Part shown: piece after piece, positions 1-15,129 of the stretch
Position numbering within the stretch: the stretch's first letter is position 1
How the letters are laid out: each line of letters begins with the position of its first letter
Source of the DNA: a virus
Lineage: Duplodnaviria; Heunggongvirae; Uroviricota; Caudoviricetes
Virus record (IMG/VR): IMGVR_UViG_2545824713_000012
DNA: 15,129 bases
Direction: 5' to 3' (one strand)
Notes under the pieces: generated by a model
The model's database searches: none
What the model was told of the DNA's origin: nothing
The model's input: only the letters and a program-made list of their open reading frames with translations
Program-made: the position numbers and the translations under genes

Positions 1-1284
1 TTACTTCTTCGCCTCTGCAACCACTTTACTACCCACGCCGCGGTTATTGTATTCCCACATGCGGTTGTAGTTAGTGTCATTCAGATTGCGCTGTATTTCG
101 TCGTTATCATCTACGCTGCCGGTATTACCCGCAAACGGACGATTAGAGATCACCGCATCGGCCCACGGTTTAGCCGTGTTAAAACCTTCGTTGATGGCGC
201 TATCACGGATCACCACCTGACCGTTGGTATTGGCATCAACATCCAGCGAGCGGCCCAGTTGCGCCACGCCATCACCGGAAGCATTGAAACGGCTGTTTAC
301 AGCGAGGAAACCGTAGTAAATGTTGGACAGCGTTGCCGGTGCAAACACATACGCTTCTTGCTGAGTACGTGAGTTCACCACGCGGAATTCGGTGTTATCG
401 AACACCACTGCGCCGCGACCAGAAACGATATCCACATCCCCTTCAATGTAGCTGTTGGTCACCAGCGTACGCGGCTGACGATTCGTTTCCAGACGGTTCT
501 GCACACCGCTGTTGGTGACAAAGAAGGTGTTCTGACGACCGAGAATGTTCACGTTGTTAATCTGTACCTGGTCACCATCAGTACGCAGTGCCACCGCCGG
601 ATGGTTACCCGCATCTACGCTATCGCCCAGCGTGTTTTCGATGGTCAGGTTTTGCAGTTGCAGGCCATTGTTTTGTGACCAGAAGACCGCTGAACAGAGA
701 ACACCGATACTGTTGCTGCGTTTGCTCTGGCAGCTATCGTACATATACCACGCTGGTTTACCTGGCATATATTTGCCGCGCGGGTTGACGTCGTGACGCC
801 AGTCGGCAGGGCTCATGCCCCCATCAAGGGAAAGCCCAATCTTCACATCAATCGGTTTTTCACCTGTACCGTACAGAGTAATTCCACCCGGAGCGGCAGG
901 AACATATACCGTTCCCTGATACTCACCTGGCATCACGGCAATATACTGGCGCTTGTTGGTACGCTTGATAATTGCCGCATCTACCGCCGCCTGAATCGTG
1001 GTATGCGTTACACCTTGAGTACCCGCCGGGCCGACAACAAAGTCAGGTTGCGCAGGCAGGGTAATCGGGGAAGGATTCCACGCTGCAGCACCTGGTGTCA
1101 GGGATGCAAAATAGTGTTGAGCATCGAAATTCTGCGCTTCTTTTGCCGACAGAATCGGGCGAGAAGAGGTACCAGGCGCGGTTTGATCAGAAGGACGTTG
1201 ATCGGGTGGTGTTGAGCTACAGGCGGTCAGCGTCACGCCAAAAGCCAATGCCAGCGCCAGACGGGAAACTGAAAATGTGTTCAC
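1..1284 (-). CDS. ybhC: YbhC, putative outer-membrane lipoprotein (pectinesterase-like fold / acyl-CoA thioesterase family); host gene flanking attB(lambda)
   Basis: 427-aa ORF starting MNTFSVSRLALALAFGVTLTAC (signal peptide plus lipobox LTAC); recognised from memory as E. coli YbhC; position 1-3 is the stop codon, so the CDS is complete. Confidence 0.9.
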   Translation of the reverse strand: MNTFSVSRLALALAFGVTLTACSSTPPDQRPSDQTAPGTSSRPILSAKEAQNFDAQHYFASLTPGAAAWNPSPITLPAQPDFVVGPAGTQGVTHTTIQAAVDAAIIKRTNKRQYIAVMPGEYQGTVYVPAAPGGITLYGTGEKPIDVKIGLSLDGGMSPADWRHDVNPRGKYMPGKPAWYMYDSCQSKRSNSIGVLCSAVFWSQNNGLQLQNLTIENTLGDSVDAGNHPAVALRTDGDQVQINNVNILGRQNTFFVTNSGVQNRLETNRQPRTLVTNSYIEGDVDIVSGRGAVVFDNTEFRVVNSRTQQEAYVFAPATLSNIYYGFLAVNSRFNASGDGVAQLGRSLDVDANTNGQVVIRDSAINEGFNTAKPWADAVISNRPFAGNTGSVDDNDEIQRNLNDTNYNRMWEYNNRGVGSKVVAEAKK

Positions 1285-1330
1285 AGGTTGCTCCGGGCTA
1301 TGAAATAGAAAAATGAATCCGTTGAAGCCT

Positions 1331-1345
1331 GCTTTTTTATACTAA
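1331..1345. other. attL core (15-bp lambda-type overlap/core GCTTTTTTATACTAA) = host/prophage junction
   Basis: Exact lambda att core; left flank (tgaagcct) is the bacterial B arm next to ybhC, right flank is the phage P' arm directly upstream of the int 3' end. Confidence 0.9.
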
Positions 1346-1418
1346 GTTGGCATTATAAAAAAGCATTGCTTATCAATTTGTTGCAACGAACAGGTCACTA
1401 TCAGTCAAAATAAAATCA
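1346..1418. promoter_or_regulatory. attL P' arm with Int arm-type sites and IHF H' site region
   Basis: Sequence GTTGGCATTATAAAAAAGCATTGCTTATCAATTTGTTGCAACGAACAGGTCACTATCAGTCAAAATAAAATCATTATTTG matches the lambda P' arm as remembered (arm-type motifs CAGGTCACTAT / CAGTCAAAAT). Confidence 0.75.
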
Positions 1419-2489
1419 TTATTTGATTTCAATTTTGTCCCACTCCCTGCCTCTGTCATCACGATACTGTGATGCCATGGTGTCCGACTTATGCCCGAGA
1501 AGATGTTGAGCAAACTTATCGCTTATCTGCTTCTCATAGAGTCTTGCAGACAAACTGCGCAACTCGTGAAAGGTAGGCGGATCCCCTTCGAAGGAAAGAC
1601 CTGATGCTTTTCGTGCGCGCATAAAATACCTTGATACTGTGCCGGATGAAAGCGGTTCGCGACGAGTAGATGCAATTATGGTTTCTCCGCCAAGAATCTC
1701 TTTGCATTTATCAAGTGTTTCCTTCATTGATATTCCGAGAGCATCAACATGCAATGCTGTTGGGATGGCAATTTTTACGCCTGTTTTGCTTTGCTCGACA
1801 TAAAGATATCCATCTACGATATCAGACCACTTCATTTCGCATAAATCACCAACTCGTTGCCCGGTAACAACAGCCAGTTCCATTGCAAGTCTGAGCCAAC
1901 ATGGTGATGATTCTGCTGCTTGATAAATTTTCAGGTATTCGTCAGCCGTAAGTCTTGATCTCCTTACCTCTGATTTTGCTGCGCGAGTGGCAGCGACAGG
2001 GTTTGTTGTTATATGGCCTTCAGCTATTGCCTCTCGGAATGCATCGCTCAGTGTTGATCTGATTAACTTGGCTGACGCCGCCTTGCCCTCGTCTATGTAT
2101 CCATTGAGCATTGCCGCAATTTCTTTTGTGGTGATGTCTTCAAGTGGAGCATCAGGCAGACCCCTCCTTATTGCTTTAATTTTGCTCATGTAATTTATGA
2201 GTGTCTTCTGCTTGATTCCTCTGCTGGCCAGGATTTTTTCGTAGCGATCAAGCCATGAATGTAACGTAACGGAATTATCACTGTTGATTCTCGCTGTCAG
2301 AGGCTTGTGTTTGTGTCCTGAAAATAACTCAATGTTGGCCTGTATGGCTTCAGTGATTGCGATTCGCCTGTCTCTGCCTAATCCAAACTCTTTACCCGTC
2401 CTTGGGTCCCTGTAGCAGTAATATCCATTGTTTCTTATATAAAGGTTAGGGGGTAAATCCCGGCGCTCATGACTTCGCCTTCTTCCCAT
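1419..2489 (-). CDS. int: Lambda-type tyrosine integrase Int
   Basis: 356-aa ORF MGRRRSHERRDLPPNLYIRNNGYYCYRDPRTGKEFGLG... matches lambda Int along its full length; 3' end abuts attL P' arm. Confidence 0.97.
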   Translation of the reverse strand: MGRRRSHERRDLPPNLYIRNNGYYCYRDPRTGKEFGLGRDRRIAITEAIQANIELFSGHKHKPLTARINSDNSVTLHSWLDRYEKILASRGIKQKTLINYMSKIKAIRRGLPDAPLEDITTKEIAAMLNGYIDEGKAASAKLIRSTLSDAFREAIAEGHITTNPVAATRAAKSEVRRSRLTADEYLKIYQAAESSPCWLRLAMELAVVTGQRVGDLCEMKWSDIVDGYLYVEQSKTGVKIAIPTALHVDALGISMKETLDKCKEILGGETIIASTRREPLSSGTVSRYFMRARKASGLSFEGDPPTFHELRSLSARLYEKQISDKFAQHLLGHKSDTMASQYRDDRGREWDKIEIK

Positions 2490-2685
2490 TTCTGATCCTC
2501 TTCAAAAGGCTACCTGTTACTGGTCGATTTAAGTCAACCTTTACCGCTGATTCGTGGAACAGATACTCTCTTCCATCCTTAACCGGAGGAGGGAATATCC
2601 TGCACTCGCGTACCCATCGACGAACTGTTTCAAGGCTTCTTGGGCGTCGCTGGCGTGCGTTCCACTCCTGAAGTGTCAAGTACAT
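2467..2685 (-). CDS. xis: Excisionase Xis
   Basis: 72-aa ORF MYLTLQEWNARQRRPRSLETVRRWVRECRIFPPPVKDGREYLF... = lambda Xis; 23-nt overlap with int start as in lambda. Confidence 0.95.
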   Translation of the reverse strand: MYLTLQEWNARQRRPRSLETVRRWVRECRIFPPPVKDGREYLFHESAVKVDLNRPVTGSLLKRIRNGKKAKS

Positions 2686-2929
2686 CGCAAAGTCTCCGCA
2701 ATTACACGCAAGAAAAAACCGCCATCAGGCGGCTTGGTGTTCTTTCAGTTCTTCAATTCGAATATTGGTTACGTCTGCATGTGCTATCTGCGCCCACAGC
2801 ATTCAGTGGTCATAGCAGTCGCTGATGTTCTCGGCTTCGATAACTCTGTTGAATGGTTCTCCATTCCATTCACCTGTGACTCGGAAGTGCATTTATCATC
2901 TCCATAAAACAAAACCCGCCGTAGCGAGT

Positions 2930-2962
2930 TCAGATAAAAGAAATCCTCGTCAGTGCGAGGAT
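2930..2962 (-). terminator. Putative intrinsic terminator for leftward transcription (7-bp stem ATCCTCG/CGAGGAT, 6-nt loop, T-rich tail on the minus strand)
   Basis: Minus strand reads CATCCTCGCACTGACGAGGAT followed by TTCTTTTATCTG; sits between the divergent AT-rich segment and xis. Confidence 0.45.
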
Positions 2963-3134
2963 GCTGTTCATTGCTGCTATACACTTTTTTGCTCTCAACG
3001 TAAGCGGTAGCCCATTCTGTTGGGTTGGTGCAGTTGCTTTTAGGAAATGCTATTTACCCCTTAAATGTCGGCTGAAAGAGCTAAAATCCATGCAAAAAAT
3101 TTACGCAATTTTGTGTATTATTGTGCAGTAAGTA

Positions 3135-3737
3135 ATGAGCTATTTTCTGCGCAAAAAATGGATGGTAAATTTGTCCGGGTCAGGAAAAATTTTATGGGCG
3201 CTAAACATGAAAAAAGATTCGTATCCTTATTTGATTTGCATGACAGTTTCAGGGCTGATCTTTATTTTCCTTTTCTTCTGGTGGCGGGCAGATATCTACA
3301 GGGTCACGTTTCTTAATCAGAGTATATCCCACTATTACATTCTGTTTAGCATGGGAATAGCTTTTCTGTTATCTCTGTTTTGGGTTAAGAAGGGGATAGT
3401 AAAACAAAGAGGCTGGAAGAGTCTGTCAGCATACCTTAAGGTTTATGCAGGGATGTGCATATTTGCAGGATTTTTTCTGATTATACCCCTTACGACACTA
3501 ACTTATTTTTTGCCTGGAGAGACATCGTCTTATGTTGCACCGTATCGGTATACTTCCGGTAGTTCAAAAAGTTGTTCTGGAGCTGAGGTGGATGACCCCG
3601 ATCTACATGAGAATATTCGCATTTGCTATCCGTATGGCAATTATGAGTACGATAATATTATCTATGTTGAAAAGAAAATTAATATATTAGGTGCGGTAGT
3701 GACATATGCACAGACCGCGCGTGATGATACTGAATGA
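3135..3737 (+). CDS. Hypothetical integral membrane protein (3 predicted TM helices plus ~75-aa Cys-containing C-terminal domain); opposite-strand moron replacing lambda ea8.5/ea22
   Basis: 200-aa ORF in AT-rich DNA; hydrophobic segments YPYLICMTVSGLIFIFLFFWW, YYILFSMGIAFLLSLFWV, YAGMCIFAGFFLIIPLTTLTYFL; basic loop KKGIVKQRGWK between TM2 and TM3. Start uncertain: in-frame ATGs at 3135, 3162 and 3207 (MKKDSY...), none with a strong SD. Confidence 0.55.
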   Translation: MSYFLRKKWMVNLSGSGKILWALNMKKDSYPYLICMTVSGLIFIFLFFWWRADIYRVTFLNQSISHYYILFSMGIAFLLSLFWVKKGIVKQRGWKSLSAYLKVYAGMCIFAGFFLIIPLTTLTYFLPGETSSYVAPYRYTSGSSKSCSGAEVDDPDLHENIRICYPYGNYEYDNIIYVEKKINILGAVVTYAQTARDDTE

Positions 3738-3781
3738 TATAGTATATAGCGGGCAAGTTTTAGTTAATTTATCGAGGTAAT

Positions 3782-3805
3782 ATAATTTACCTCGACTCGT
3801 TTGTT
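3782..3805 (+). terminator. Putative terminator hairpin downstream of the membrane-protein gene (9-bp stem TCGAGGTAA/TTACCTCGA, loop TATAAT)
   Basis: Perfect 9-bp inverted repeat 45 nt after the stop at 3737, followed by CTCGTTTGTTCT. Confidence 0.4.
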
Positions 3806-3933
3806 CTGGTATTAATATTTCGCTTTACGACCGATTTTTATCTGATGATATCATGCGGTTTTCATATACTGACTTACTGTCTTTTCTCCGTTAGCGATTT
3901 TCTCCTGCTCAGCGATGATTTTATCTTTGGCTT

Positions 3934-3951
3934 CTAGTTAATTTCGCTCAC
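3934..3951 (-). pseudogene. Remnant of lambda ea22 start (VSEIN then stop): right-hand junction of the substituted segment
   Basis: Minus strand reads GTG AGC GAA ATT AAC TAG; lambda Ea22 begins MSEIN... as I remember it; start overlaps the orf73 stop (GTGA). Confidence 0.4.
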
Positions 3952-4169
3952 TTCGAACCTCTCTGTTTACTGATAAGCTCCAGATCCTCCTGGCAACTTG
4001 CACAAGTCCGACAACCCTGAACGACCAGGCGTCTTCGTTCATCTATCGGATCGCCACACTCACAACAATGAGTGGCAGATATAGCCTGGTGGTTCAGGCG
4101 GCGCATTTTTATTGCTGTGTTGCGCTGTAATTCTTCAATTTCTGATGCTGAATCAATGATGTCTGCCAT
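3948..4169 (-). CDS. Lambda Orf73-like TraR/DksA-family C4 zinc-finger protein
   Basis: 73-aa ORF MADIIDSASEIEELQRNTAIKMRRLNHQAISATHCCECGDPIDERRRLVVQGCRTCASCQ with CxxC...CxxC motif typical of TraR/DksA; position matches lambda orf73. Confidence 0.85.
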   Translation of the reverse strand: MADIIDSASEIEELQRNTAIKMRRLNHQAISATHCCECGDPIDERRRLVVQGCRTCASCQEDLELISKQRGSK

Positions 4170-4267
4170 CTTCCATTAATCCCTGAATTGTTGGTTAATA
4201 CGCTTGAGGGTGAATGCGAATAATAAAAAAGGAGCCTGTAGCTCCCTGATGATTTTGCTTTTCATGT

Positions 4268-4579
4268 TCATCGTTCCTTAAAGACGCCGTTTAACATGCC
4301 GATTGCCAGGCTTAAATGAGTCGGTGTGAATCCCATCAGCGTTACCGTTTCGCGGTGCTTCTTCAGTACGCTACGGCAAATGTCATCGACGTTTTTATCC
4401 GGAAACTGCTGTCTGGCTTTTTTGATTTCAGAATTAGCCTGACGGGCAATGCTGCGAAGGGCGTTTTCCTGCTGAGGTGTCATTGAACAAGTCCCATGTC
4501 GGCAAGCATAAGCACACAGAATATGAAGCCCGCTGCCAGAAAAATGCATTCCGTGGTTGTCATACCTGGTCTCTCTCAT
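4268..4579 (-). CDS. Lambda orf61-region ORF, here open for 103 aa
   Basis: Start overlaps the orf63 stop by 20 nt as in lambda; N-terminal part MRETRYDNHGMHFSGSGLHILCAYACRHG... is lambda-like; the ORF runs past where I remember the lambda stop, possibly a homopolymer-length difference. Confidence 0.55.
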   Translation of the reverse strand: MRETRYDNHGMHFSGSGLHILCAYACRHGTCSMTPQQENALRSIARQANSEIKKARQQFPDKNVDDICRSVLKKHRETVTLMGFTPTHLSLAIGMLNGVFKER

Positions 4580-4751
4580 CTGCTTCTGCTTTCGCCACCA
4601 TCATTTCCAGCTTTTGTGAAAGGGATGCGGCTAACGTATGAAATTCTTCGTCTGTTTCTACTGGTATTGGCACAAACCTGACTCCAATTTGAGCGAGGCT
4701 ATGTGCCATCTCGATACTCGTTCTTAACTCAACGGGAGATGCTTTGTGCAT
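4560..4751 (-). CDS. Lambda Orf63 homolog
   Basis: 63-aa [66 protein letters not shown], same length and position as lambda orf63. Confidence 0.8.
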   Translation of the reverse strand: MHKASPVELRTSIEMAHSLAQIGVRFVPIPVETDEEFHTLAASLSQKLEMMVAKAEADERDQV

Positions 4752-4912
4752 ACAGCTCCCCGTTTATTATTTATCTCCTCAGCCAGCCGCTGTGCTTTCA
4801 GGGGATTTCGGATAACAGAAAGGCCGGGAAATACCCAGCCTCGCTTCGTAACGGAGTAGACGAAAGTGATCGTGCCTACGCGGATATTATCGTGAGGATG
4901 TTTCATCGCCAT
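4724..4912 (-). CDS. Lambda Orf60a homolog
   Basis: [58 protein letters not shown]...; the lambda-length product would start at the second Met (4906). Confidence 0.8.
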
Positions 4913-5583
4913 TGCTCCCCAAATACAAAACCAATTTCAGCCAGTGCCTCGTCCATTTTTTCGATGAACTCCGGCACCATCTCGTCAAAACTCGCCATGT
5001 AATTTTCATCCCGCTCAACCACGACATAATGCAGGCCTTCACGCTTCATTCGTGGGTCATAGTTGGCAAAGTACCAGGCATCTTTTCGCGTCACCCACAT
5101 GCTGTACTGCACCTGGGCCATGTAAGCTGACTTTATGGCCTCGAAACCACCGAGCCGGAATTTCATGAAATCCCGGGAGGTAAACGGGCATTTCAGTTCA
5201 AGGCCGTTGCCGTCACTGCATAAACCATCGGGAGAGCAGGCGGTGCGCATACTTTCGTCGCGATAGATGATCGGGGATTCAGTAACATTCACGCCGGAAG
5301 TAAACTCAAACAGGGCTCTGGCGTCGTTCTCGTACTGTTTTCCCCAGGCCAGCGCCTTAGCATTAACTTCCGGAGCCACACCGGTGCAAACCTCAGCCAG
5401 CAGGGTGTGGAAGTAGGACATTTTCATGTCAGGCCACTTCTTTCCTGAGCGGGGCTTTGCTATCACGTTGTGAACTTCTGAAGCGGTGATGACGCCGAGC
5501 CGTAATTTGTGCCATGCATCATCCCCCTGTTCGACAGCTCTCACGTCGATCCCGGTACGCTGCAGGATAATGTCCGGTGTCAT
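4903..5583 (-). CDS. exo: Lambda exonuclease (Red alpha), 5'-3' dsDNA exonuclease
   Basis: 226-aa [72 protein letters not shown]... matches lambda Exo; ATGA overlap with bet. Confidence 0.97.
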
Positions 5584-6365
5584 GCTGCCACCTTCTGCTC
5601 AGTGGCTTTCTGTTTCAGGAATCCAAGAGCTTTCACTGCTTCGGCCTGTGTCAGTTCTGACGATGCGCGAATGTCGCGGCGAAATATCTGGGAACAGAGC
5701 GGCAATAAGTCGTCATCCCATGTTTTATCCAGGGCGATCAGCAGAGTGTTAATCTCCTGCATGGTTTCATCGTTAACCGGAGTGATGTCGCGTTCCGGCT
5801 GACGTTCTGCAGTGTATGCAGTATTTTCGACAATGCGCTCGGCTTCATCCTTGTCATAGATACCAGCAAATCCGAAGGCCAGACGGGCACACTGAATCAT
5901 GGCTTTATGCCGTAACATCCGTTTGGGATGCGACTGCCACGGCCCCGTAATTTCTCTGCCTTCGCGAGTTTTGAATGGTTCGCGGCGGCATTCATCCATC
6001 CATTCGGTAACGCAGATCGGATGATTACGGTCCTTGCGGTAAATCCGGCATGTACAGGATTCATTGTCCTGCTCAAAGTCCATGCCATCAAACTGCTGGT
6101 TTTCATTGATGATGCGGGACCAGCCATCAACGCCCACCACCGGAACGATGCCGTTCTGCTTATCAGGGAAGGCGTAAATTTCTTTCGTCCACGGATTAAG
6201 GCCGTACTGGTTGGCGACGATCAACAATGCGATGAACTGCGCATCGCTGGCATCACCTTTAAATGCCGTCTGGCGAAGAGTGGTGATCAGTTCCTGTGGG
6301 TCGACAGAATCCATGCCGACACGTTCAGCCAGCTTCCCTGCCAGCGTTGCGAGTGCTGTACTCAT
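5580..6365 (-). CDS. bet: Lambda Bet (Red beta) single-strand annealing protein
   Basis: 261-aa [71 protein letters not shown]... matches lambda Bet. Confidence 0.97.
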
Positions 6366-6370
6366 CCGTT

Positions 6371-6667
6371 TTATACCTCTGAATCAATATCAACCTGGTG
6401 GCGGGCAATAGTTTCAACCATGTACCGTATGTGTTCTGCCATGCGTTCCTGAAACTCAACATCGTCATCAAACGCACGGGTAATGGCTTTTTTGCTGGCC
6501 CCGTGGCGTTGCAAATGATCGATGCATAGCGATTCAAACAGGTGCTGGGGCAGGCCTTTTTCCATGTCGTCTGCCAGTTCTGCCTCTTTCTCTTCACGGG
6601 CGATCTGCTGGTAGTGACGCGCCCAGCTCTGAGCCTCAAGACGATCCTGAATGTAATAAGCGTTCAT
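6371..6667 (-). CDS. gam: Gam (RecBCD inhibitor), short 98-aa form only
   Basis: [60 protein letters not shown]... matches lambda Gam; strong SD AGGAG 8 nt upstream; in-frame TAA 19 codons upstream with no start codon in between. Confidence 0.93.
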
Positions 6668-6743
6668 GGCTGAACTCCTGAAAATGGCTGTGAAAATATC
6701 GCCCGCGAAATGCCAGGCTGATTAGGAAAACAGGAAAGGGGGG

Positions 6744-7034
6744 TTAGTGATTCAGGCCGTTACCGCGTCCGTCGAGAAAAACTTCCACGAGCAAATCACG
6801 GGTATAAGTGCGCTCGATGCCGCGATGCAGATAAAGCCGTCCGCGTAAATTAGCTGATGCAGTCCAGGTACCATCTTTGTGTTTGACCAGCATTCCTGGC
6901 ATGACCGCACCTCGATTAACGGTCTGCGTTCCGTAATGTTGATGAACCATAAAAACTCCTGCCCGTAAGCTGGGCTGCTGAACATATAAAGACTTCTGCG
7001 CGTATTCAGGCGGTGGATGGCCGCCGGTTGTCAT
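6744..7034 (-). CDS. Hypothetical protein, first ORF of the leftward early operon (occupies the lambda N/cIII/kil position; not N-like)
   Basis: 96-aa ORF MTTGGHPPPEYAQKSLYVQQPSLRAGVFMVHQHYGTQTVNRGAVMPGMLVKHKDGTWTASANLRGRLYLHRGIERTYTRDLLVEVFLDGRGNGLNH; no family recognised; no arginine-rich N-terminal motif; its stop coincides with the point where lambda-like gam-upstream sequence begins. Confidence 0.5.
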   Translation of the reverse strand: MTTGGHPPPEYAQKSLYVQQPSLRAGVFMVHQHYGTQTVNRGAVMPGMLVKHKDGTWTASANLRGRLYLHRGIERTYTRDLLVEVFLDGRGNGLNH

Positions 7035-7227
7035 AACTAAGCCGCCTCGTTGAAGCGACTAAGGTATGAAATGTTGAGTTAATTTCAGCTGGTCACACCG
7101 ACGTTCACGCGTCCGTTTCACCCCTCGCACTCCCCGAAGCCTGCTGAAATTCAAACTGCGGATCTAAGCGGTCATCGCAACGGTGAATCAGGTAGTTGCC
7201 GTATCGTTGTGTTGTTGCGATGAACTT

Positions 7228-7256
7228 ATTTAAAACTATAGTTGTTTTATCGTCAA
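7228..7256 (-). promoter_or_regulatory. PL-like early leftward promoter (-35 TTGACG, 17-nt spacer, -10 TTAAAT) overlapping operator repeats
   Basis: Minus strand GTTGTTGACGATAAAACAACTATAGTTTTAAAT is nearly colinear with the PR sequence GTTGTTGACTAAAAACAACCATAGTTTTAATCT at 8280-8312. Confidence 0.5.
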
Positions 7257-7390
7257 CAACAAAAGTTGTTTTATTGGTTGTTTTAGATATAACTGGTTGT
7301 ATTTAGGATGGATTTATTTTGTGACTTGAATCGCATAGCGATAACTGAAGCGAGGTTATGGTGGTTTTTTTAACGGTGTGTGTGATGAGG

Positions 7391-7423
7391 GGAGGGCAAA
7401 AGAAAACCCGGCACGGTGACCGG
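7391..7423 (-). terminator. Putative intrinsic terminator downstream of the repressor gene
   Basis: Minus strand CCCGG-tcaccgtg-CCGGG followed by TTTTCTTTTG; about 120 nt past the repressor stop. Confidence 0.45.
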
Positions 7424-7545
7424 GATTCTTACGCCGTTAGGTAAAGATATTATTGCGGTGGCTTAATATTACTACCTAGAGCAAAGATAGGAATTAGTTC
7501 TTTACTGAATGAGCACAATGCCCAGTTGATAATTTTTAATTGGTA

Positions 7546-8235
7546 CTACCCATGCTTCCTATATGTCTGCGGCATGCTCCCAATAACCTTACCGAAGATG
7601 AACACCCGGTTCATCTCGTCTTTCTCGATCGGGTCCCACGGTGAGTAGCTTTTGTTATCAGAGATGACCAGCAGCTTATTCTTCATCATTTGCAGGCGCT
7701 TTACATGGGCTGTGTCGTCGTACAGAAACGCATAGATACCATCACCGTCGAAAGATTTAACTGTGATATCAACGAACAGCAGATCACCTGGTTCGATCGT
7801 TCCTGACATGCTGTCACCACGCACGTTAATGATGCGGATATTTTCCGCCTTCCTACCATCGAACATGTGACGAGCATCGTCAAACGAGTACTCAACCGAG
7901 CGTAGAACTTCTACAAACTCACGGTTGATGACTCCCGGCCCAGCACTGACTTCTATATCAAGAACGTCAATCTTGAAGTATTTGGAATGGCTGACAGTTG
8001 ATTGTATTGGTTGCACTGTACTGTCTGACATATTTCCAACGCCAGAAGATAACCATTCTGCGCGCACACCCAAAGCGTTCGCGATCTCCACGATTTTAGT
8101 TGTTTGATTAGCTTTCCCTGTTTCGATTTTCTGAATAGCAGCCTGGCTAACCCCGACCAAATCCCCAAGCGCCTTTTGTGTAAGGCCTCGCGCTAATCTG
8201 GCTTCTTTAAGTCTTTCTGAGAGTGTTGTTTTCAT
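7546..8235 (-). CDS. CI-like prophage repressor (N-terminal HTH_XRE, C-terminal S24 LexA-type autopeptidase)
   Basis: MKTTLSERLKEARLARGLTQKALGDLVGVSQAAIQKIETGK... HTH; Ala-Gly site in VSAGPG; catalytic Ser in RGDSMSG and Lys in HVKRL. I prefer the ATG at 8235 (229 aa) over the ORF-track start at 8301 because the extra 22 codons would overlap the PR -35/operator. Confidence 0.85.
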   Translation of the reverse strand: MKTTLSERLKEARLARGLTQKALGDLVGVSQAAIQKIETGKANQTTKIVEIANALGVRAEWLSSGVGNMSDSTVQPIQSTVSHSKYFKIDVLDIEVSAGPGVINREFVEVLRSVEYSFDDARHMFDGRKAENIRIINVRGDSMSGTIEPGDLLFVDITVKSFDGDGIYAFLYDDTAHVKRLQMMKNKLLVISDNKSYSPWDPIEKDEMNRVFIFGKVIGSMPQTYRKHG

Positions 8236-8277
8236 AGTCCAAATGTACAACCAAGGTTTTATTCCATCAAACGAAAA

Positions 8278-8300
8278 TGGTTGTTGACTAAAAACAACCA
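8278..8300. promoter_or_regulatory. Candidate OR operator: 23-bp palindrome TGGTTGTT-N7-AACAACCA overlapping the PR -35
   Basis: Perfect 8-bp inverted arms; related half-sites ACAACCA/TGGTTGT recur at 8247-8253, 8324-8339 and in the PL region (7275-7281, 7294-7300). Confidence 0.5.
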
Positions 8301-8312
8301 TAGTTTTAATCT
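8284..8312 (+). promoter_or_regulatory. PR-like early rightward promoter (-35 TTGACT, 17-nt spacer, -10 TAATCT)
   Basis: Consensus-like sigma70 elements about 28 nt upstream of the cro-like ATG, which has SD GGAGG at 8330-8334. Confidence 0.6.
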
Positions 8313-8339
8313 TGATTCAAATTAACCACGGAGGTTGTT

Positions 8340-8570
8340 ATGAACCCAGCTATCAAAACAGCGATCAATATCGTTGGTTCACAAAAGAAACTGGGCGCTG
8401 CTTGCGAAGTTTCACAGCAGGCCGTCTATAAGTGGCTTCACAACAAAGCAAAGGTATCCCCTGAACATGTCGGCAGCATTGTTACGGCTACTGGTGGAGT
8501 AGTGAAGGCATACCAGATTCGCCCGGATCTTCCGAAGTTGTTTCCACACACCGAAAAGAACGCAGCTTAA
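8340..8570 (+). CDS. Cro-like HTH regulator (YdaS family)
   Basis: 76-aa ORF MNPAIKTAINIVGSQKKLGAACEVSQQAVYKWLHNKAKVSPEHVGSIVTATGGVVKAYQIRPDLPKLF; HTH plus the C-terminal RPD motif I associate with Rac YdaS; divergent from the repressor across the PR/operator region. Confidence 0.8.
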   Translation: MNPAIKTAINIVGSQKKLGAACEVSQQAVYKWLHNKAKVSPEHVGSIVTATGGVVKAYQIRPDLPKLFPHTEKNAA

Positions 8571-8582
8571 ATTTCCATTTCA

Positions 8583-8595
8583 CGCTCTTTAACAA
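8583..8595 (+). promoter_or_regulatory. boxA-like element CGCTCTTTAACAA (rrn-consensus type) in the cro-ydaT intergenic region
   Basis: 12/13 match to rrn boxA TGCTCTTTAACAA as remembered; no convincing boxB hairpin seen after it. Confidence 0.35.
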
Positions 8596-8639
8596 TAAGC
8601 AATCAACTTAACAGTCAATTCAAACTAAAGGAGTCAATT

Positions 8640-9179
8640 ATGCAACCACTTACATACCAACAGACTAGCGGATTTAGCCCGACTGCGGTGATAAATCGTT
8701 CTCAAACAAAACAGGTGCCAGGCCACGAAAAAATCCGTGATGCCGTCCGCGCCTGGTCGGCTGTAGATAATCAGGATGTCGTTGCCACACTCATTGTGAA
8801 TGAGTATCGGGAGCAGGGCGGCGGCACCATCGATTTCCCTGATGATGTCAGCCGTGCACGCCAGAAGCTGTTCCGCTTCCTCGATAACAAATTCGATTCT
8901 GAAAAATACCGAAATAATGTGCGTGAACTGACCCCGGCAATTCTGGCGGTACTACCGCTGGAATATCGCGGTTACCTGGTTGAGCAGGATAGCTTCATGG
9001 CTAGGTTGGCTGAAATGGAAAAGGAACTCAGTGAGGCAAAACAGGCTGTCATTCTCAACGCACCACGCCACCAGAAACTGAAGGAAATTAGTGAAGGTAT
9101 TGTGTCGATGTTTCGTGTGGACCCAGATCTGGCTGGTCCATTGATGGCGATGGTTACTACCATGCTGGGGGCGATATGA
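8640..9179 (+). CDS. YdaT-family protein (Rac prophage YdaT-like, in the cII position)
   Basis: 179-aa ORF; segments LIVNEYREQGGGTIDFP and LTPAILAVLPLEYRGYL resemble Rac YdaT (EEYLRQGGGELPL, KLIPAILAILPRELRHR) from memory; strong SD AAGGAG upstream. Confidence 0.75.
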   Translation: MQPLTYQQTSGFSPTAVINRSQTKQVPGHEKIRDAVRAWSAVDNQDVVATLIVNEYREQGGGTIDFPDDVSRARQKLFRFLDNKFDSEKYRNNVRELTPAILAVLPLEYRGYLVEQDSFMARLAEMEKELSEAKQAVILNAPRHQKLKEISEGIVSMFRVDPDLAGPLMAMVTTMLGAI

Positions 9180-9265
9180 CAGGTTCAGAAATGGCGAAAG
9201 CCGGTCTGCTGGAACAGAACCGACTTTCAGGTGCAAATCGTAACACACTCATTGCGGGAGGAATT

Positions 9266-10195
9266 ATGGCAAACACTGCTGAGATATTCAATTTTCCAGT
9301 GCCGGATGCGGCACAAAAGGAGCCGCGCGTGGCAGATCTCGATGATGGTTATACGCGCATTGCAAATGAGTTGCTGGAAGCTGTGATGCTGGCCGGATTA
9401 ACACAGCACCAGCTTCTGGTCTTCCTGGCTGTCATGCGCAAAACATATGGCTTTAATAAAAAACTGGATTGGGTGAGCAACGAGCAACTTTCCGAGTTGA
9501 CCGGGATATTGCCGCACAAGTGTTCTGCTGCAAAAAGTGTTCTGGTAAAGCGTGGGATTTTTATTCAGAGTGGGCGGAATATCGGCATTAATAATGTGGT
9601 CAGTGAATGGTCAACATTACCCGAATCAGGTAAGAAAAATAAAGTTTACCTGAAAGAGGTAAATTTACCTGAATCAGGTAAGAAAAGTTTACCCAAATCA
9701 GGTAAAGGCGTTTACCCGAATCAGGTAAACACAAAAGACAAACTAACAAAAGACAATATAAAACCTTTTTCGTCCGAGAATTCTGGCGAATCCTCTGACC
9801 AGCCAGAAAACGACTTTCCTTTGGAGAAACTGGATGCTGCAATTCAGAGCGGCAGCAAGTGGGGGACAGCAGAAGACCTGACCGCCGCAGAGTGGATGTT
9901 TAACATGGTGAAGACCATCGCGCCCTCAGCCAGAAAACCGAATTTTGCAGGGTGGGCTAACGATATCCGCCTGATGCGTGAACGTGACGGACGTAACCAC
10001 CGCGACATGTGCGTGCTGTTCCGCTGGGCATGCCAGGACAACTTCTGGTCCGGTAACGTGCTGAGTCCGGCCAAACTCCGCGACAAGTGGACCCAACTCG
10101 AAATCAACCGTAACAAGCAACAGGCTGGCGTGACAACCGGAAAATCAAAACTCGACCTGACAAACACTGACTGGATTTACGGGGTGGATTTATGA
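9266..10195 (+). CDS. O: Lambda O-type replication initiator
   Basis: MANTAEIFNFPVPDAAQKEPRVADLDDGYTRIANELLEA... aligns with lambda O N-terminus (MTNTAKILNFGRG...VADLDDGYARLSNMLLEA); C-terminal third is nearly identical to lambda O; SD GGGAGG before the ATG at 9266; the ORF-track start at 9176 is an upstream in-frame extension. Confidence 0.93.
   Translation: MANTAEIFNFPVPDAAQKEPRVADLDDGYTRIANELLEAVMLAGLTQHQLLVFLAVMRKTYGFNKKLDWVSNEQLSELTGILPHKCSAAKSVLVKRGIFIQSGRNIGINNVVSEWSTLPESGKKNKVYLKEVNLPESGKKSLPKSGKGVYPNQVNTKDKLTKDNIKPFSSENSGESSDQPENDFPLEKLDAAIQSGSKWGTAEDLTAAEWMFNMVKTIAPSARKPNFAGWANDIRLMRERDGRNHRDMCVLFRWACQDNFWSGNVLSPAKLRDKWTQLEINRNKQQAGVTTGKSKLDLTNTDWIYGVDL
9617..9773. repeat. Replication origin inside O: five 17-19-bp palindromic iterons (TTTACC-N7-GGTAAA) followed by an A/T-rich tract
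   Basis: Iterons at 9617-9633, 9645-9663, 9664-9682, 9688-9706, 9711-9729 (e.g. TTTACCCGAATCAGGTAAA), then ACACAAAAGACAAACTAACAAAAGACAATATAAAACCTTTTT; same organisation as lambda ori but different iteron sequence. Confidence 0.75.
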
Positions 10196-10893
10196 AAAAC
10201 ATCGCCGCACAGATGGTTAACTTTGACCGTGAGCAGATGCGCCGGATCGCCAACAACATGCCGGAACAGTACGACGAAAAGCCGCAGGTACAGCAGGTAG
10301 CGCAGATCATCAACGGTGTGTTCAGCCAGTTACTGGCAACTTTCCCGGCGAGCCTGGCTAACCGTGACCAGAATGAACTGAACGAAATCCGCCGCCAGTG
10401 GGTTCTGGCTTTCTGGGAAAACGGGATCACCACAATGGAACAGGTTAACGCTGGAATGCGCGTAGCCCGTCGGCAGAATCGACCATTCCTGCCATCACCC
10501 GGGCAGTTTGTCGCCTGGTGCCGGGAAGAAGCATCCGTTACCGCCGGGCTGCCAAACGCCAGCGAGCTGGTTGATATGGTTTACGAGTATTGCCGGAAGC
10601 GCGGGCTGTATCCGGATGCAGAGTCTTATCCGTGGAAATCAAACGCGCACTACTGGCTGGTTACCAACCTGTATCAGAACATGCGGGCCAATGCGTTGAC
10701 TGACGCGGAATTACGGCGCAAGGCTGCCGATGAACTGTCCTGTATGACCGCACGAATTAACCGTGGTGAGGCTATACCTGAACCAGTAAAACAACTTCCT
10801 GTCATGGGCGGTAGACCTCTAAATCGTGCACAGGCTCTGGCGAAGATCGCAGAAATCAAAGCTAAGTTTGGGCTGAAAGGAGCAAGGGTATGA
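10192..10893 (+). CDS. P: Lambda P replication protein (DnaB helicase loader)
   Basis: 233-aa ORF MKNIAAQMVNFDREQMRRIANNMPEQYDEKPQVQQVAQIINGVFSQLLATFPASLANRDQNE... near-identical to lambda P; ATGA overlap with O. Confidence 0.95.
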   Translation: MKNIAAQMVNFDREQMRRIANNMPEQYDEKPQVQQVAQIINGVFSQLLATFPASLANRDQNELNEIRRQWVLAFWENGITTMEQVNAGMRVARRQNRPFLPSPGQFVAWCREEASVTAGLPNASELVDMVYEYCRKRGLYPDAESYPWKSNAHYWLVTNLYQNMRANALTDAELRRKAADELSCMTARINRGEAIPEPVKQLPVMGGRPLNRAQALAKIAEIKAKFGLKGARV

Positions 10894-11192
10894 CGGGCAA
10901 AGAGGCAATTATTCATTACCTGGGGACTCATAAGAAATTCTGTGCGCAGGACGTTGCCGCGGTAACAGGCGCAACGGTAACCAGCATAAATCAGGCTGCG
11001 GCTAAAATGGCGCGGGCAGGAATCCTGGTCGTTGATGGTAAGGTCTGGCGAACGGTGTATTATCGGTTCGCTACCAGAGAAGAATGGGAAGGAAAGGTGA
11101 GCACGAATTTGATTTTTAAGGAGTGTCGCCAGAGTGCCGCGATGAAACGGGTATTGAGGGTATATAAAAGAACATCAATGGGTACACAATGA
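10890..11192 (+). CDS. ren: Ren-like protein with divergent C-terminus
   Basis: MTGKEAIIHYLGTHKKFCAQDVAAVTGATVTSINQAAAKMARAGILVVDGKVWRTVYYRFATREEWEGK... matches lambda Ren up to ...AAMKRVL, then ends RVYKRTSMGTQ instead of the lambda tail. Confidence 0.85.
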   Translation: MTGKEAIIHYLGTHKKFCAQDVAAVTGATVTSINQAAAKMARAGILVVDGKVWRTVYYRFATREEWEGKVSTNLIFKECRQSAAMKRVLRVYKRTSMGTQ

Positions 11193-11259
11193 TGAAACAG
11201 GTGAGTTGAGTTCAAACTGTAGTACAATTCTCTCCAGTTTGAACAGGAAAGAATATGCT

Positions 11260-11592
11260 ATGAATCCTTATATTTATCTTGGTGGTGCAATACTTGCAGA
11301 GGTCATTGGTACAACCTTAATGAAGTTTTCAGAAGGTTTTACACGGTTATGGCCATCTGTTGGTACAATTATTTGTTATTGTGCATCATTCTGGTTATTA
11401 GCTCAGACGCTGGCTTATATTCCTACAGGGATTGCTTATGCTATCTGGTCAGGAGTCGGTATTGTCCTGATTAGCTTACTATCATGGGGATTTTTCGGCC
11501 AACGGTTGGACCTGCCAGCCATTATAGGCATGATGTTGATTTGTGCCGGTGTGTTGGTTATTAATTTATTGTCACGAAGCACACCACATTAA
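11260..11592 (+). CDS. emrE: EmrE small multidrug resistance (SMR) efflux transporter
   Basis: 110-aa product MNPYIYLGGAILAEVIGTTLMKFSEGFTRLWPSVGTIICYCASFWLLAQTLAYIPTGIAYAIWSGVGIVLISLLSWGFFGQRLDLPAIIGMMLICAGVL... matches E. coli EmrE; the ORF-track start at 11206 is an upstream extension; SD AGGA before 11260. Confidence 0.9.
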   Translation: MNPYIYLGGAILAEVIGTTLMKFSEGFTRLWPSVGTIICYCASFWLLAQTLAYIPTGIAYAIWSGVGIVLISLLSWGFFGQRLDLPAIIGMMLICAGVLVINLLSRSTPH

Positions 11593-11622
11593 AAATAATT
11601 TGTTTTTAAACGACTAAAATAT

Positions 11623-11660
11623 GGAGGCTCGTATATTTATATGGGCCTCGTTTTATGCTT
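11623..11660 (+). terminator. Possible imperfect terminator hairpin after emrE
   Basis: GAGGC...GCCTC stem with a long AT loop followed by GTTTTATGCTTTTTG; weak. Confidence 0.3.
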
Positions 11661-11847
11661 TTTGTTAATGTCTTTAGTTTTTATTCATTCTTTTGTGCTT
11701 TCAAGATTATGGTGTAAGAAAATTGCAATACGATTATTGTTGTATATTCAAGATAATGTGACCTTAATTGTCTTTTTAAATAAAAATTAAACAAAAATCA
11801 TATCTCACCACTAAGGTTTATAAAAGCATACTTTAGCAGGTGTCACC

Positions 11848-13374
11848 ATGAAAAAAGCCATAGCATATATGCGATTTTCATCACCAGGTCAGATGTCTGG
11901 TGATTCATTAAACCGCCAGAGAAGGCTTATTACTGAATGGCTAAAGGTAAATAGTGATTATTACCTTGATACCGTAACGTATGAAGATTTGGGGTTAAGC
12001 GCATTCAATGGAAAGCATGCACAATCAGGAGCTTTTTCGGAATTTTTAGATGCTATAGAACATGGTTATATATTGCCAGGGACTACATTGTTAGTTGAAA
12101 GTCTGGACAGACTTTCAAGAGAAAAAGTCGGTGAAGCGATTGAGCGTCTGAAATTGATTTTGAATCACGGTATTGATGTTATAACTCTTTGCGATAATAC
12201 AGTCTATAATATTGACTCATTGAATGAGCCATATTCATTAATAAAAGCCATACTTATAGCACAAAGGGCAAATGAAGAAAGCGAGATAAAGTCAAGTCGG
12301 GTTAAATTATCATGGAAGAAAAAACGGCAGGATGCACTGGAGTCAGGCACGATTATGACGGCGTCTTGTCCGAGATGGCTCTCATTGGATGACAAAAGAA
12401 CGGCTTTTGTTCCAGACCCCGACAGGGTGAAAACTATTGAGCTAATTTTTAAACTCAGGATGGAAAGGCGCTCATTGAATGCAATAGCCAAGTATTTAAA
12501 TGATCATGCTGTAAAGAATTTCTCAGGAAAAGAAAGTGCATGGGGACCTTCTGTAATTGAAAAATTATTAGCGAATAAAGCTCTGATAGGTATATGCGTA
12601 CCTTCATATCGTGCAAGAGGTAAAGGAATAAGTGAAATCGCTGGCTATTATCCCAGAGTCATATCAGATGATTTGTTTTACGCTGTGCAGGAAATTCGGT
12701 TGGCACCTTTTGGTATTAGCAATAGTAGCAAAAATCCTATGTTGATAAATCTACTTCGAACAGTTATGAAGTGCGAGGCTTGTGGTAATACCATGATTGT
12801 TCATGCGGTATCTGGAAGTTTGCATGGCTATTATGTTTGTCCGATGAGAAGACTGCATCGATGTGACAGGCCATCAATAAAGAGAGATTTGGTTGATTAT
12901 AATATCATTAATGAGTTGCTTTTTAATTGTAGTAAAATCCAACCAGTTGAAAACAAGAAAGATGCTAATGAAACTTTAGAGTTGAAAATTATTGAGCTCC
13001 AGATGAAAATTAATAATTTAATTGCTGCATTATCTGTTGCGCCTGAAGTTACCGCTATAGCAGAAAAAATCAGAGTATTAGATAAGGAATTACGAAGGGC
13101 TTCTGTATCATTAAAAACTTTGAAGAGTAAAGCGGTGAGTTCACTTGGTGATTTTCATGCTATTGACTTAACCAGTAAAAATGGGCGAGAGCTATGTCGT
13201 ACACTTGCCTATAAAACATTCGAAAAAATCATAATCAATACAGATAATAAAACCTGTGATATCTATTTTATGAATGGCATTGTTTTTAAACACTATCCTT
13301 TAATGAAAACAATATCTGCCCAGCAGGCGATAAGTACTCTCAAATATATGGTTGATGGTGAGGTTTATTTTTGA
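11848..13374 (+). CDS. ybcK: Large serine recombinase (YbcK family; N-terminal resolvase/invertase catalytic domain, recombinase and zinc-ribbon domains)
   Basis: 508-aa ORF MKKAIAYMRFSSPGQMSGDSLNRQRRLITEWLK... with catalytic Ser in the YMRFSS motif; matches DLP12 YbcK as remembered; SD AGGTG upstream; AT-rich. Confidence 0.85.
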   Translation: MKKAIAYMRFSSPGQMSGDSLNRQRRLITEWLKVNSDYYLDTVTYEDLGLSAFNGKHAQSGAFSEFLDAIEHGYILPGTTLLVESLDRLSREKVGEAIERLKLILNHGIDVITLCDNTVYNIDSLNEPYSLIKAILIAQRANEESEIKSSRVKLSWKKKRQDALESGTIMTASCPRWLSLDDKRTAFVPDPDRVKTIELIFKLRMERRSLNAIAKYLNDHAVKNFSGKESAWGPSVIEKLLANKALIGICVPSYRARGKGISEIAGYYPRVISDDLFYAVQEIRLAPFGISNSSKNPMLINLLRTVMKCEACGNTMIVHAVSGSLHGYYVCPMRRLHRCDRPSIKRDLVDYNIINELLFNCSKIQPVENKKDANETLELKIIELQMKINNLIAALSVAPEVTAIAEKIRVLDKELRRASVSLKTLKSKAVSSLGDFHAIDLTSKNGRELCRTLAYKTFEKIIINTDNKTCDIYFMNGIVFKHYPLMKTISAQQAISTLKYMVDGEVYF

Positions 13375-13398
13375 GTAATAATCACTTTTTCAACCGTG

Positions 13399-13476
13399 CT
13401 ATAGTAAGAAAGTTAGGTAAGTACAATAAAATTATCTATCCTGAACGAAGCGTCCTGAGCTATGGTTTTACTATAG
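13399..13476. repeat. Inverted repeat pair CTATAGTAA(G/A)AA ... TTTTACTATAG flanking about 60 bp, between ybcK and the next ORF
   Basis: 9-bp perfect (12-bp imperfect) inverted repeats at 13399-13407 and 13468-13476; the right copy lies just upstream of the SD (AGGGA) of the 107-aa ORF. Confidence 0.4.
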
Positions 13477-13485
13477 GGACTGCCA

Positions 13486-13809
13486 ATGGATGCTGGCGTT
13501 CTCGTTCTAGCAGTTCAACAATCCCCAATCACAAAACAATTCACTGATAACGAACTTTGCACACTCGCCTGGTTATGGCGAGCAGGGAATGTGATGTTAA
13601 TTACCTACCAGAACGTTACTCCTCTTCTTCAGGTTGCGGAGCATCGTGAAGCTGGTCGCTTCACTTCTATCGAGCAAGAATATCCCCAGATACTCAACAG
13701 AGCGCGAGCAATCCTCGTCCGAGAAACGGCACATGTAAAACTTCAGCCGTGGCAGGATGATAAGTGGAGTCGAGTATTGCCGCATTTACCTCAGAATCTG
13801 TTTCAATAA
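13486..13809 (+). CDS. Hypothetical 107-aa protein (no family recognised)
   Basis: ORF MDAGVLVLAVQQSPITKQFTDNELCTLAWLWRAGNVMLITYQNVTPLLQVAEHREAGRFTSIEQEYPQILNRARAILVRETAHVKLQPWQDDKWSRVLPHLPQNLFQ with SD AGGGA 6 nt upstream. Confidence 0.5.
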   Translation: MDAGVLVLAVQQSPITKQFTDNELCTLAWLWRAGNVMLITYQNVTPLLQVAEHREAGRFTSIEQEYPQILNRARAILVRETAHVKLQPWQDDKWSRVLPHLPQNLFQ

Positions 13810-13983
13810 AGGCGCTAGTTAGTAAGGCTTCCGTCATTCTGCGATGACGGAAGTGCGGGCTGCGTACGGGAGAGCAATTGCATGAATAATATAAATATTC
13901 CGCTCACTCCATATAGCGATTTCTGATACAAACTTATCTATTGTGGTAAAATTATAGAAACAAACTTATAGCGTACTAACCAT

Positions 13984-14679
13984 ATGGACAATATTAATAA
14001 ACACGGGCTCTCAAGAAGAATACCTGAGACAATAAAACGTCAGATAAGGCAAAGGTGCGGCTTTGGCTGTGTAATTTGTGGATTTGGATTTTATGATTAT
14101 GAGCATTTTAAACCTGACTTCGTTGATGCCAAAGTACATGATCCGAATGGAATGACACTTCTTTGCTCCCAATGCAATCAAAAAAGAGCTCGTGGTAGAC
14201 TTTCAGCACAGACAGTGGAAATAGCTGACAGAAATCCCAAGTGCTTACAGGCTGGTTTTGCAAATGAAATGTTTGATTTTCATAATGAGCCTATAACAGT
14301 AAAATTTGCAGGAGTGACGTTTCATAACTGTCAAAATTTGATTGTAGTCAACGAACAACCCATTCTTTCTGTGAAACCTTCACCCATACCACATGGACCG
14401 ATGCTTTTATCAGGAATTTTCTGTAATTCTATTGGTAAGGAGACTTTACTGATAGATGAAAATGAATGGAAAGCTAAATCAGACAATTGGGATGTGGAGT
14501 GTACCGGCCCGCGTATAACAATACGACGTGGGCCAGGAGAGTTTGCCCTCGTTCTAAAAATGGAACCTCCAACAGGATTGATTGTTGAGCGTCTTGATAT
14601 GTTGTATGAAGGGGTCAGGATGAAAGGAGATAAAGATCTGCTGGAAGTTTTGAACCGCCCCGGGAATCCTGGAGACTAA
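13984..14679 (+). CDS. HNH-motif nuclease-domain protein with uncharacterised C-terminal domain; 3' end disrupted by IS insertion (last 9 codons are IS-derived)
   Basis: N-terminal CGFGCVIC...YDYEHFKP...[15 protein letters not shown] fits the HNH (beta-beta-alpha-Me, two CxxC) pattern; ORF is in frame into the IS terminal repeat starting at 14651, so the native C-terminus is missing; no SD seen. Confidence 0.6.
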
Positions 14680-14704
14680 ACTTCCTGAGAAAGAGGTAAA
14701 CAGG

Positions 14705-15031
14705 ATGACTAAAAATACTCGTTTTTCCCCCGAAGTCCGTCAACGGGCAGTCCGTATGGTTCTGGAAAGTCAGAGCGAATATGACTCACAATGGGCGACA
14801 ATTTGTTCCATTGCTCCAAAGATTGGCTGTACGCCGGAGACTCTGCGTGTCTGGGTTCGCCAGCATGAGCGGGATACCGGGGGCGGTGATGGAGGGCTCA
14901 CCACCGCTGAACGTCAGCGTCTGAAAGAGCTGGAACGTGAAAATCGTGAACTGCGCCGCAGTAACGATATCCTTCGCCAGGCTTCCGCTTATTTTGCGAA
15001 GGCGGAGTTCGACCGCCTCTGGAAAAAATGA
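14705..15031 (+). CDS. IS3-family transposase OrfA (HTH DNA-binding subunit)
   Basis: 108-aa [111 protein letters not shown]. Confidence 0.9.
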
Positions 15032-15129
15032 TGCCACTGCTGGATAAGCTGCGTGAGCAGTACGGGGTCGGACCGCTATGCAGCGAACTGCATATTGCCC
15101 CGTCAACGTATTACCACTGTCAGCAACAG
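15027..15129 (+). CDS. IS3-family transposase OrfB (DDE catalytic subunit), 5' partial within window
   Basis: -1 frame relative to orfA; [34 protein letters not shown]...; overlaps the orfA stop across an A-rich slippery stretch (GGAAAAAATGATG). Confidence 0.8.

Follow-up and report, generated by a model that had tools for sequence, protein, structure and literature searches.

The prophage DNA in the window (the whole stretch of 15,129 nucleotides analysed here) runs at its 3′ end into an IS629-type element of the IS3 family, which interrupts the 3′ part of an HNH-like gene and supplies the new end of its reading frame. The arrangement probably arose by a simple and recent transposition of a 1310-bp element. 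Both the IS and this type of event are known, the gene is of unknown function, and the insertion is rare but already catalogued. The features of the disrupted region, in window coordinates, are the following.

13984 to 14679, plus strand: chimeric 231-aa open reading frame (WP_024203577.1), consisting of 222 native codons, a hybrid Leu codon, eight IS codons (NRPGNPGD) and a TAA stop
13984 to 14650, plus strand: native part of the HNH-like gene (phrog_6544), covering the zinc-finger HNH domain at the N terminus and the greater part of the all-beta domain at the C terminus
14648 to 14650, no strand: TTT, the triplet that would be expected as a duplication at the right IS end after a simple insertion, judging from the 3-bp duplications of sister copies and from PMC3271280
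14651 to 15129, plus strand: left 479 bp of the 1310-bp IS629-type IS3-family element, cut by the end of the contig and window, with 479 of 479 positions identical to L006 1501–1979
14651 to 14675, plus strand: left terminal inverted repeat (TGAACCGCCCCGGG...), with perfect pairing of its first 14 nt, and pairing of 23 of its first 25, to the right end of the reference copy
14651 to 14679, plus strand: IS-encoded tail of the chimeric reading frame (two nt of the Leu codon, eight codons and the stop)
14705 to 15031, plus strand: IS orfA, 108 aa, HTH_Tnp_1, with an AGAGG Shine-Dalgarno sequence at 14692–14696
14986 to 15102, plus strand: ALIL pseudoknot that stimulates frameshifting, a match to the full length of Rfam model RF01497 at 120.2 bits (gathering score 50; E = 2.5e-31)
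15023 to 15028, plus strand: A6 run just 5′ of the orfA stop, the programmed −1 frameshift site for the OrfA-OrfB fusion, from the sequence and from the 'programmed frameshift' annotated on identical copies
15028 to 15129, plus strand: 5′ part of IS orfB (−1 frame), 34 codons long up to the end of the contig; the part for the DDE/rve domain is outside the window

The left junction

Base-level alignment with two IS-free alleles places the end of native identity at 14650, and the first base of the IS is therefore 14651. In this alignment the native allele reads ...GAAGTTT/CGATTAATGGAGG... where the window reads ...GAAGTTT/TGAACCGCC..., so that GAAGTTT is followed by CGATTAATGG... in the IS-free alleles and by TGAACCGCCCCGGG... 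in the window, which from 14651 onwards runs TGAACCGCCCCGGGAATCCTGGAGACTAA.... With a 761-bp query ending at 14660, the match ended at 14650–14653 in all 82 of the complete E. coli genomes that carry the gene, some matches seeming to reach 14653 through a chance identity of 'GA' past one mismatch. The codon at 14650–14652, TTG (Leu), is a hybrid in which the T is native (from TCG, Ser) and the TG comes from the IS. GC content changes from about 0.37–0.41 in the HNH-like gene to 0.54–0.56 in the last 430 bp of the window.

An earlier note, made from the DNA letters without database searches, had proposed that an IS3-family element starts at 14651, that it cuts off the 3′ end of the gene and that the last nine codons and the stop are read from the IS. 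The base-level alignment and the unbroken identity with known copies of the element bear out the first of these proposals, the longer IS-free allele bears out the second, and the count of nine is right if the hybrid Leu codon is included.

The IS629-type element

Of 5426 complete E. coli genomes, 3780 contain the segment 14651–15129, the median copy number being three per genome, and its matches are annotated in RefSeq as 'IS3 family' or 'IS3-like element IS629 family transposase'. A reference copy in strain 600468 is 1310 bp long and splits tssC, a 3-bp AAC duplication fixing both of its ends; its terminal repeats read TGAACCGCCCCGGG and ...CCCGGGGCGGTTCA, with TG...CA ends and 14 of 14 terminal matches, and the window's 479 bp agree with this copy at every position. 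The right repeat of the copy in the prophage falls outside the window. By chance, 0.03 occurrences of the terminal 14-mer would be expected in the window, which contains one. Every IS3-family feature that can be judged from the window is present, namely the inverted repeat, orfA, a frameshift site accompanied by the pseudoknot, and the beginning of orfB, while the rve/DDE domain, the element length and the 3-bp duplication are seen only in the sister copies that share the 479 bp. The orfA product matches Pfam HTH_Tnp_1 (E = 7.4e-13) and also NCBIfam transpos_IS3, and OrfB of the reference copy matches rve (8.3e-28) and transpos_IS3 (314.6 bits, cut-off 160). The nine full-length copies examined, which share the window's 479 bp, are each 1310 bp long and identical to one another. 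IS3-family elements transpose by copy-out/paste-in. Set beside the IS629, IS1203 and IS3411 isoforms of E. coli and Shigella, the element shows no difference at all, and it is the insertion site alone that is peculiar to this clone, the insertion being found in none of the 82 gene-carrying complete genomes.

The disrupted gene and its chimeric product

The intact allele comprises 783 nt and encodes a 260-aa 'hypothetical protein' (WP_001348590.1). The insertion follows codon 222 and displaces 38 native codons (SINGGPLHRWQSCSMSNCHTGLAIQGGIRAANDPLYCA). Whereas the intact allele is found on at least 1000 contigs, the chimeric allele is found on three to four, and the exact chimeric reading frame appears in four contigs that include NCBI assemblies and independent Logan assemblies of three sequencing runs. 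This scarcity, together with the single SNP that separates 14.65 kb of the window from an IS-free relative, indicates that the insertion is recent and clonal. In IS-free alleles, a 59-aa open reading frame (P0017; L001 6758–6937) lies just past the breakpoint and overlaps the gene's 3′ end in the +1 frame; it is annotated as a 'hypothetical protein' on 28 contigs, probably spuriously.

The intact allele reaches 14.5 bits against Pfam HNH PF01844 (E = 0.041), below the gathering score of 21.4, and the truncated allele has no PF01844 match at E ≤ 0.01. The best family of the intact protein is phrog_6544, 'unknown function' (1.8e-141), accompanied by weak matches to four PHROG HNH families, and a comparison with NCBIfam models returned no match. 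The phrog_6544-type family is large, with 2040 representative clusters (50% identity) found at E ≤ 1e-3 in an exhaustive search. The N-terminal domain is an HNH-type nuclease fold, since C29, C32, Y39, H41, H52, L60 and C61 are invariant in a 45-member alignment, 17 of 45 homologues match PF01844 at E ≤ 0.01 (best 4.9e-6) and the best PDB sequence match of the family profile is the HNH domain of IscB. The residues of the zinc-finger HNH motif are C29-x2-C32, H41, H52 and C61-x2-C64-N65, and the protein has the zinc-binding CxxC pairs and the catalytic His of the beta-beta-alpha-Me fold. The label 'HNH' given to the gene in the earlier note accordingly holds at the level of family and fold but not by the Pfam cut-off for this particular protein.

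The all-beta C-terminal domain (approximately residues 96–251, about 155 residues) has no convincing match in the PDB. In a structure model (pLDDT 95) of the homologue P0169, which is 58% identical to the intact allele, the breakpoint falls inside the strand 224–229, with the confident strands 235–238, 240–243 and 247–251 and a terminal helix beyond it; in the alignment of 45, homologues likewise reach 25–40 residues past the breakpoint and share a weakly conserved G-[ILF]-x-[LIF] end. Because these modelled strands and this homologous sequence lie past the breakpoint, the truncated protein, which keeps the HNH domain and loses the last three to four C-terminal beta-strands, is probably destabilised or inactive. 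Among the phrog_6544 homologues P0169–P0318, lengths range from 150 to 672 aa and the C-terminal extensions are variable.

Compared with the HNH nucleases EcoKMcrA, CBASS Cap5 and the HNH domain of IscB, the protein described here differs in lying below the Pfam HNH cut-off, in having an all-beta C-terminal domain without a convincing structural match in belonging to a family of 'unknown function' and in matching no NCBIfam model. Membership of the gene in a known defence system is not accepted, PADLOC having returned a marginal PtuB match only (E = 0.031).

Prophage context and the IS-free relative

The window begins in ybhC and contains the lambda att core GCTTTTTTATACTAA at 1331–1345. Then come int, xis, exo, bet, gam, kil, an S24 repressor, YdaS/YdaT-type regulators, O and P, followed by ren, emrE, ybcK, a C-terminal fragment of a P22 antirepressor and the HNH-like gene, which occupies the cargo region from ren to nin in a lambda-like prophage at att-lambda (ybhC/ybhB). 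Strain 600468 (NZ_CP025849.1) lacks the IS and differs from positions 1–14650 of the window by a single SNP, at 12396. This A versus C difference inside ybcK is the sole one over 14,650 bp, so the source clone and 600468, a stool isolate from Bangladesh, are very close relatives. On the 3′ side of the gene, 600468 carries ybcN, ninE, ybcO, rusA, ylcG, quuD, a porin gene and lysis genes, and further on terminase, portal, head and tail genes, stfR and a second att core adjoining ybhB. Its prophage is complete, spanning 45.7 kb between the two lambda att cores, and the attL, int, xis, recombination genes, repressor, O and P present in the window are identical to those of this complete sister.

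The gene order ren-emrE-ybcK-...-ybcN-ninE-ybcO-rusA-ylcG-quuD-porin-essD-rrrD, that of the cargo slot of DLP12 and the lambda nin region, is shared with the IS-free relatives, going by their RefSeq gene names. In K-12, DLP12 is defective and occupies a different site, whereas the prophage of the 600468 relative is a complete one at att-lambda with the HNH-like gene in the cargo slot. The SMR efflux gene emrE and the serine recombinase gene ybcK (11260–13374) are cargo between ren and nin, again in the DLP12 arrangement.

Other parts of the window merit brief description. About 600 bp (6951–7545) separate the kil-like gene from the S24 repressor gene and contain no open reading frame longer than 36 aa and no gene annotated in the sister, and the interval has no Rfam match at the gathering threshold; its counterpart in lambda holds N, nutL and pL. 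At 13486–13809 a 107-aa open reading frame consists of the P22 antirepressor C-terminal domain (PF10548) alone and is probably an orphan fragment. On its 3′ side, at 13828–13853, lies a perfect 10-bp hairpin (cttccgtcat-tctgcg-atgacggaag) with no T-run.

The contig end

The final base of the window is the final base of the draft contig APZR01000068.1 (111,644 bp; GCA_000357105.1); the last 11,146 nt of the two are the same, and the window as a whole corresponds to the contig's last 15,129 bases. The contig stops 479 nt into a multicopy IS, and in an independent Logan assembly of another run the sequence with this junction likewise ends inside the IS, after exactly 30 nt (k-1), which is the mark of a repeat-induced assembly break: a multicopy repeat is something that assemblers are unable to pass. 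That nin, Q, lysis and late genes do not appear in the window is therefore uninformative. The earlier note had considered the prophage probably truncated at this point and had read the missing genes as fitting disruption or deletion by the IS. With a contig end in the IS and a complete sister prophage one SNP away, this view is not upheld: the absence merely reflects where the contig stops, and nothing in the window argues for a cryptic prophage.

Searches for the right junction and target duplications of sister copies

A 37-mer spanning the left junction had no matches among species-representative genomes, and the left junction was likewise without a match in JGI metagenomes. A right-junction pattern allowing a duplication of 2–5 bp gave no matches in either the species-representative genomes or the JGI metagenomes. 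Six predicted right-junction products were modelled on the Logan overhang of k-1 = 30 with a 3- or 4-bp duplication, and exact look-up of these in the protein collection found only the 59-aa +1-frame product P0017, which is not diagnostic of the right junction because it is also annotated in IS-free complete genomes. A concatenate of two predicted right-junction open reading frames had one match, P0016, which was rejected as an unrelated frameshifted allele from another sample. Rare-allele tracing with ten late proteins of the sister prophage placed each of them on 164–871 contigs, none being a cluster representative. The tail-fibre allele of the sister, WP_024203579.1, is two accession numbers away from the chimeric WP_024203577.1, a hint of simple insertion that is weak because the tail-fibre allele occurs on 164 contigs.

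Twelve copies of the exact IS variant were examined in complete genomes, nine of them full length. A perfect 3-bp duplication flanks six of these nine, including three of the four chromosomal ones, and the other three have no target duplication. These duplication-free copies (L010 and L016 in strain 504239; L017 on a plasmid of strain 600468) provide examples of IS-associated rearrangement, L016 joining unrelated genes, namely a ParB pseudogene and a DUF4113 fragment. In L005, L012 and L014, copies of the same variant from the unrelated strains M217, 504838 and 4/2-1, colinearity is lost at the same place, around nt 780; L005 continues with a group II intron reverse-transcriptase gene (ltrA), suggestive of an intron targeting this IS.

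In O157:H7 genomes, duplications of 3–4 bp were present at 21 of 47 IS629 sites and absent from 26, and deletions mediated by IS629 have been documented there (PMC3271280). Given the 3 of 9 copies examined here and the 26 of 47 O157:H7 sites without a duplication, adjacent deletion or rearrangement is not rare for this element. The IS629-disrupted O157:H7 prophage genes described by Rump et al. 2011 (PMC3271280) resemble the present case in that the same IS enters prophage genes, giving rise to strain-specific polymorphisms and to breaks in draft contigs. They differ from it in their host, which is here a relative of the Bangladeshi stool isolate 600468 and not O157, and in their target, which is here a lambda-att prophage with a DLP12-type nin region.

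Origin of the disrupted allele

That the reading frame ends here naturally, its likeness to an IS end being incidental, is a notion with next to no probability and is refuted by the longer IS-free alleles and the 479 of 479 identity with the IS. The native frame goes on for 38 codons, to 260 aa, and the gene thus has no natural end at this place; homologues, too, continue for 25–40 residues. An IS-free allele ending at the same position had been named in the earlier note as one observation that would overturn its reading, and the IS-free alleles proved to be longer. A mis-join of prophage reads to an IS located elsewhere, in a genome whose gene is really intact, deserves slightly more consideration, given that the contig ends in a repeat and that draft assemblies can mis-join at repeats, but it is highly improbable: the exact chimeric reading frame recurs in four contigs, independent Logan assemblies of three runs among them, and the IS inverted repeat begins precisely at the join, as it does in real insertions.

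A more substantial alternative, unlikely but by no means negligible, is that the IS marks the end-point of a deletion or rearrangement, intramolecular transposition or recombination between IS copies having removed the remnant of the gene and, partly or completely, the nin, Q, lysis and late genes and left a truncated, cryptic prophage. The duplication-free copies, above all the one joining unrelated genes, are consistent with this, as are the O157:H7 sites, just 21 of 47 of which have duplications, and the deletions documented there (PMC3271280); so is the outcome of the right-junction searches, which found no such junction in species-representative genomes, JGI metagenomes or the protein collection. 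The window itself, however, says nothing about a deletion, as its sequence stops at a contig end in the IS, and the near-identical sister prophage is complete. Most copies of this IS variant are, moreover, simple insertions, one SNP in 14.65 kb points to a very recent event that leaves little time for secondary rearrangement, and the adjacency of the two accession numbers hints that the tail-fibre gene is present. A simple insertion is the most likely origin because 3-bp duplications flank six of the nine full-length copies of the variant.

Under simple insertion, an IS629-type element would have transposed recently into the HNH-like gene of the att-lambda prophage; its orientation is that of the phage early-right operon. 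The gene has lost its last 38 codons from the frame, the IS providing nine codons (one of them hybrid) and a stop. The rest of the IS, the TTT duplication and the 38-codon remnant would be expected on another contig of the same assembly, as would an otherwise intact nin-Q-lysis-head-tail region. Lying upstream of Q, the 1.3-kb insert may have a polar effect on the expression of late genes. A terminator scan of the IS found terminator-like sites not in excess over shuffles, and any polarity would therefore need Rho acting on a poorly translated orfB. Including the IS, the prophage would measure about 47.0 kb, a size inside lambda-type packaging limits.

Significance

The biological weight of the insertion is low, as IS629-type insertions in E. 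coli prophage genes are routine and the chimera already stands in RefSeq as a hypothetical protein. As a lesson of method, a window that ends in a multicopy IS at the end of a draft contig is not evidence that downstream genes are missing. Of minor value is the pairing of the insertion with the near-identical, IS-free 600468, which makes the disrupted allele a natural mutant of an uncharacterised HNH-like prophage gene. It is conceivable, though doubtful, that this family, with its HNH domain and novel beta domain in a prophage cargo slot, represents a phage-borne defence or exclusion nuclease, of which the IS allele would be a natural knock-out, or else a variant whose activity is changed along with its C terminus. 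If this were true, the IS allele and the intact sister prophage one SNP away would constitute a ready-made isogenic pair for the function of the family.
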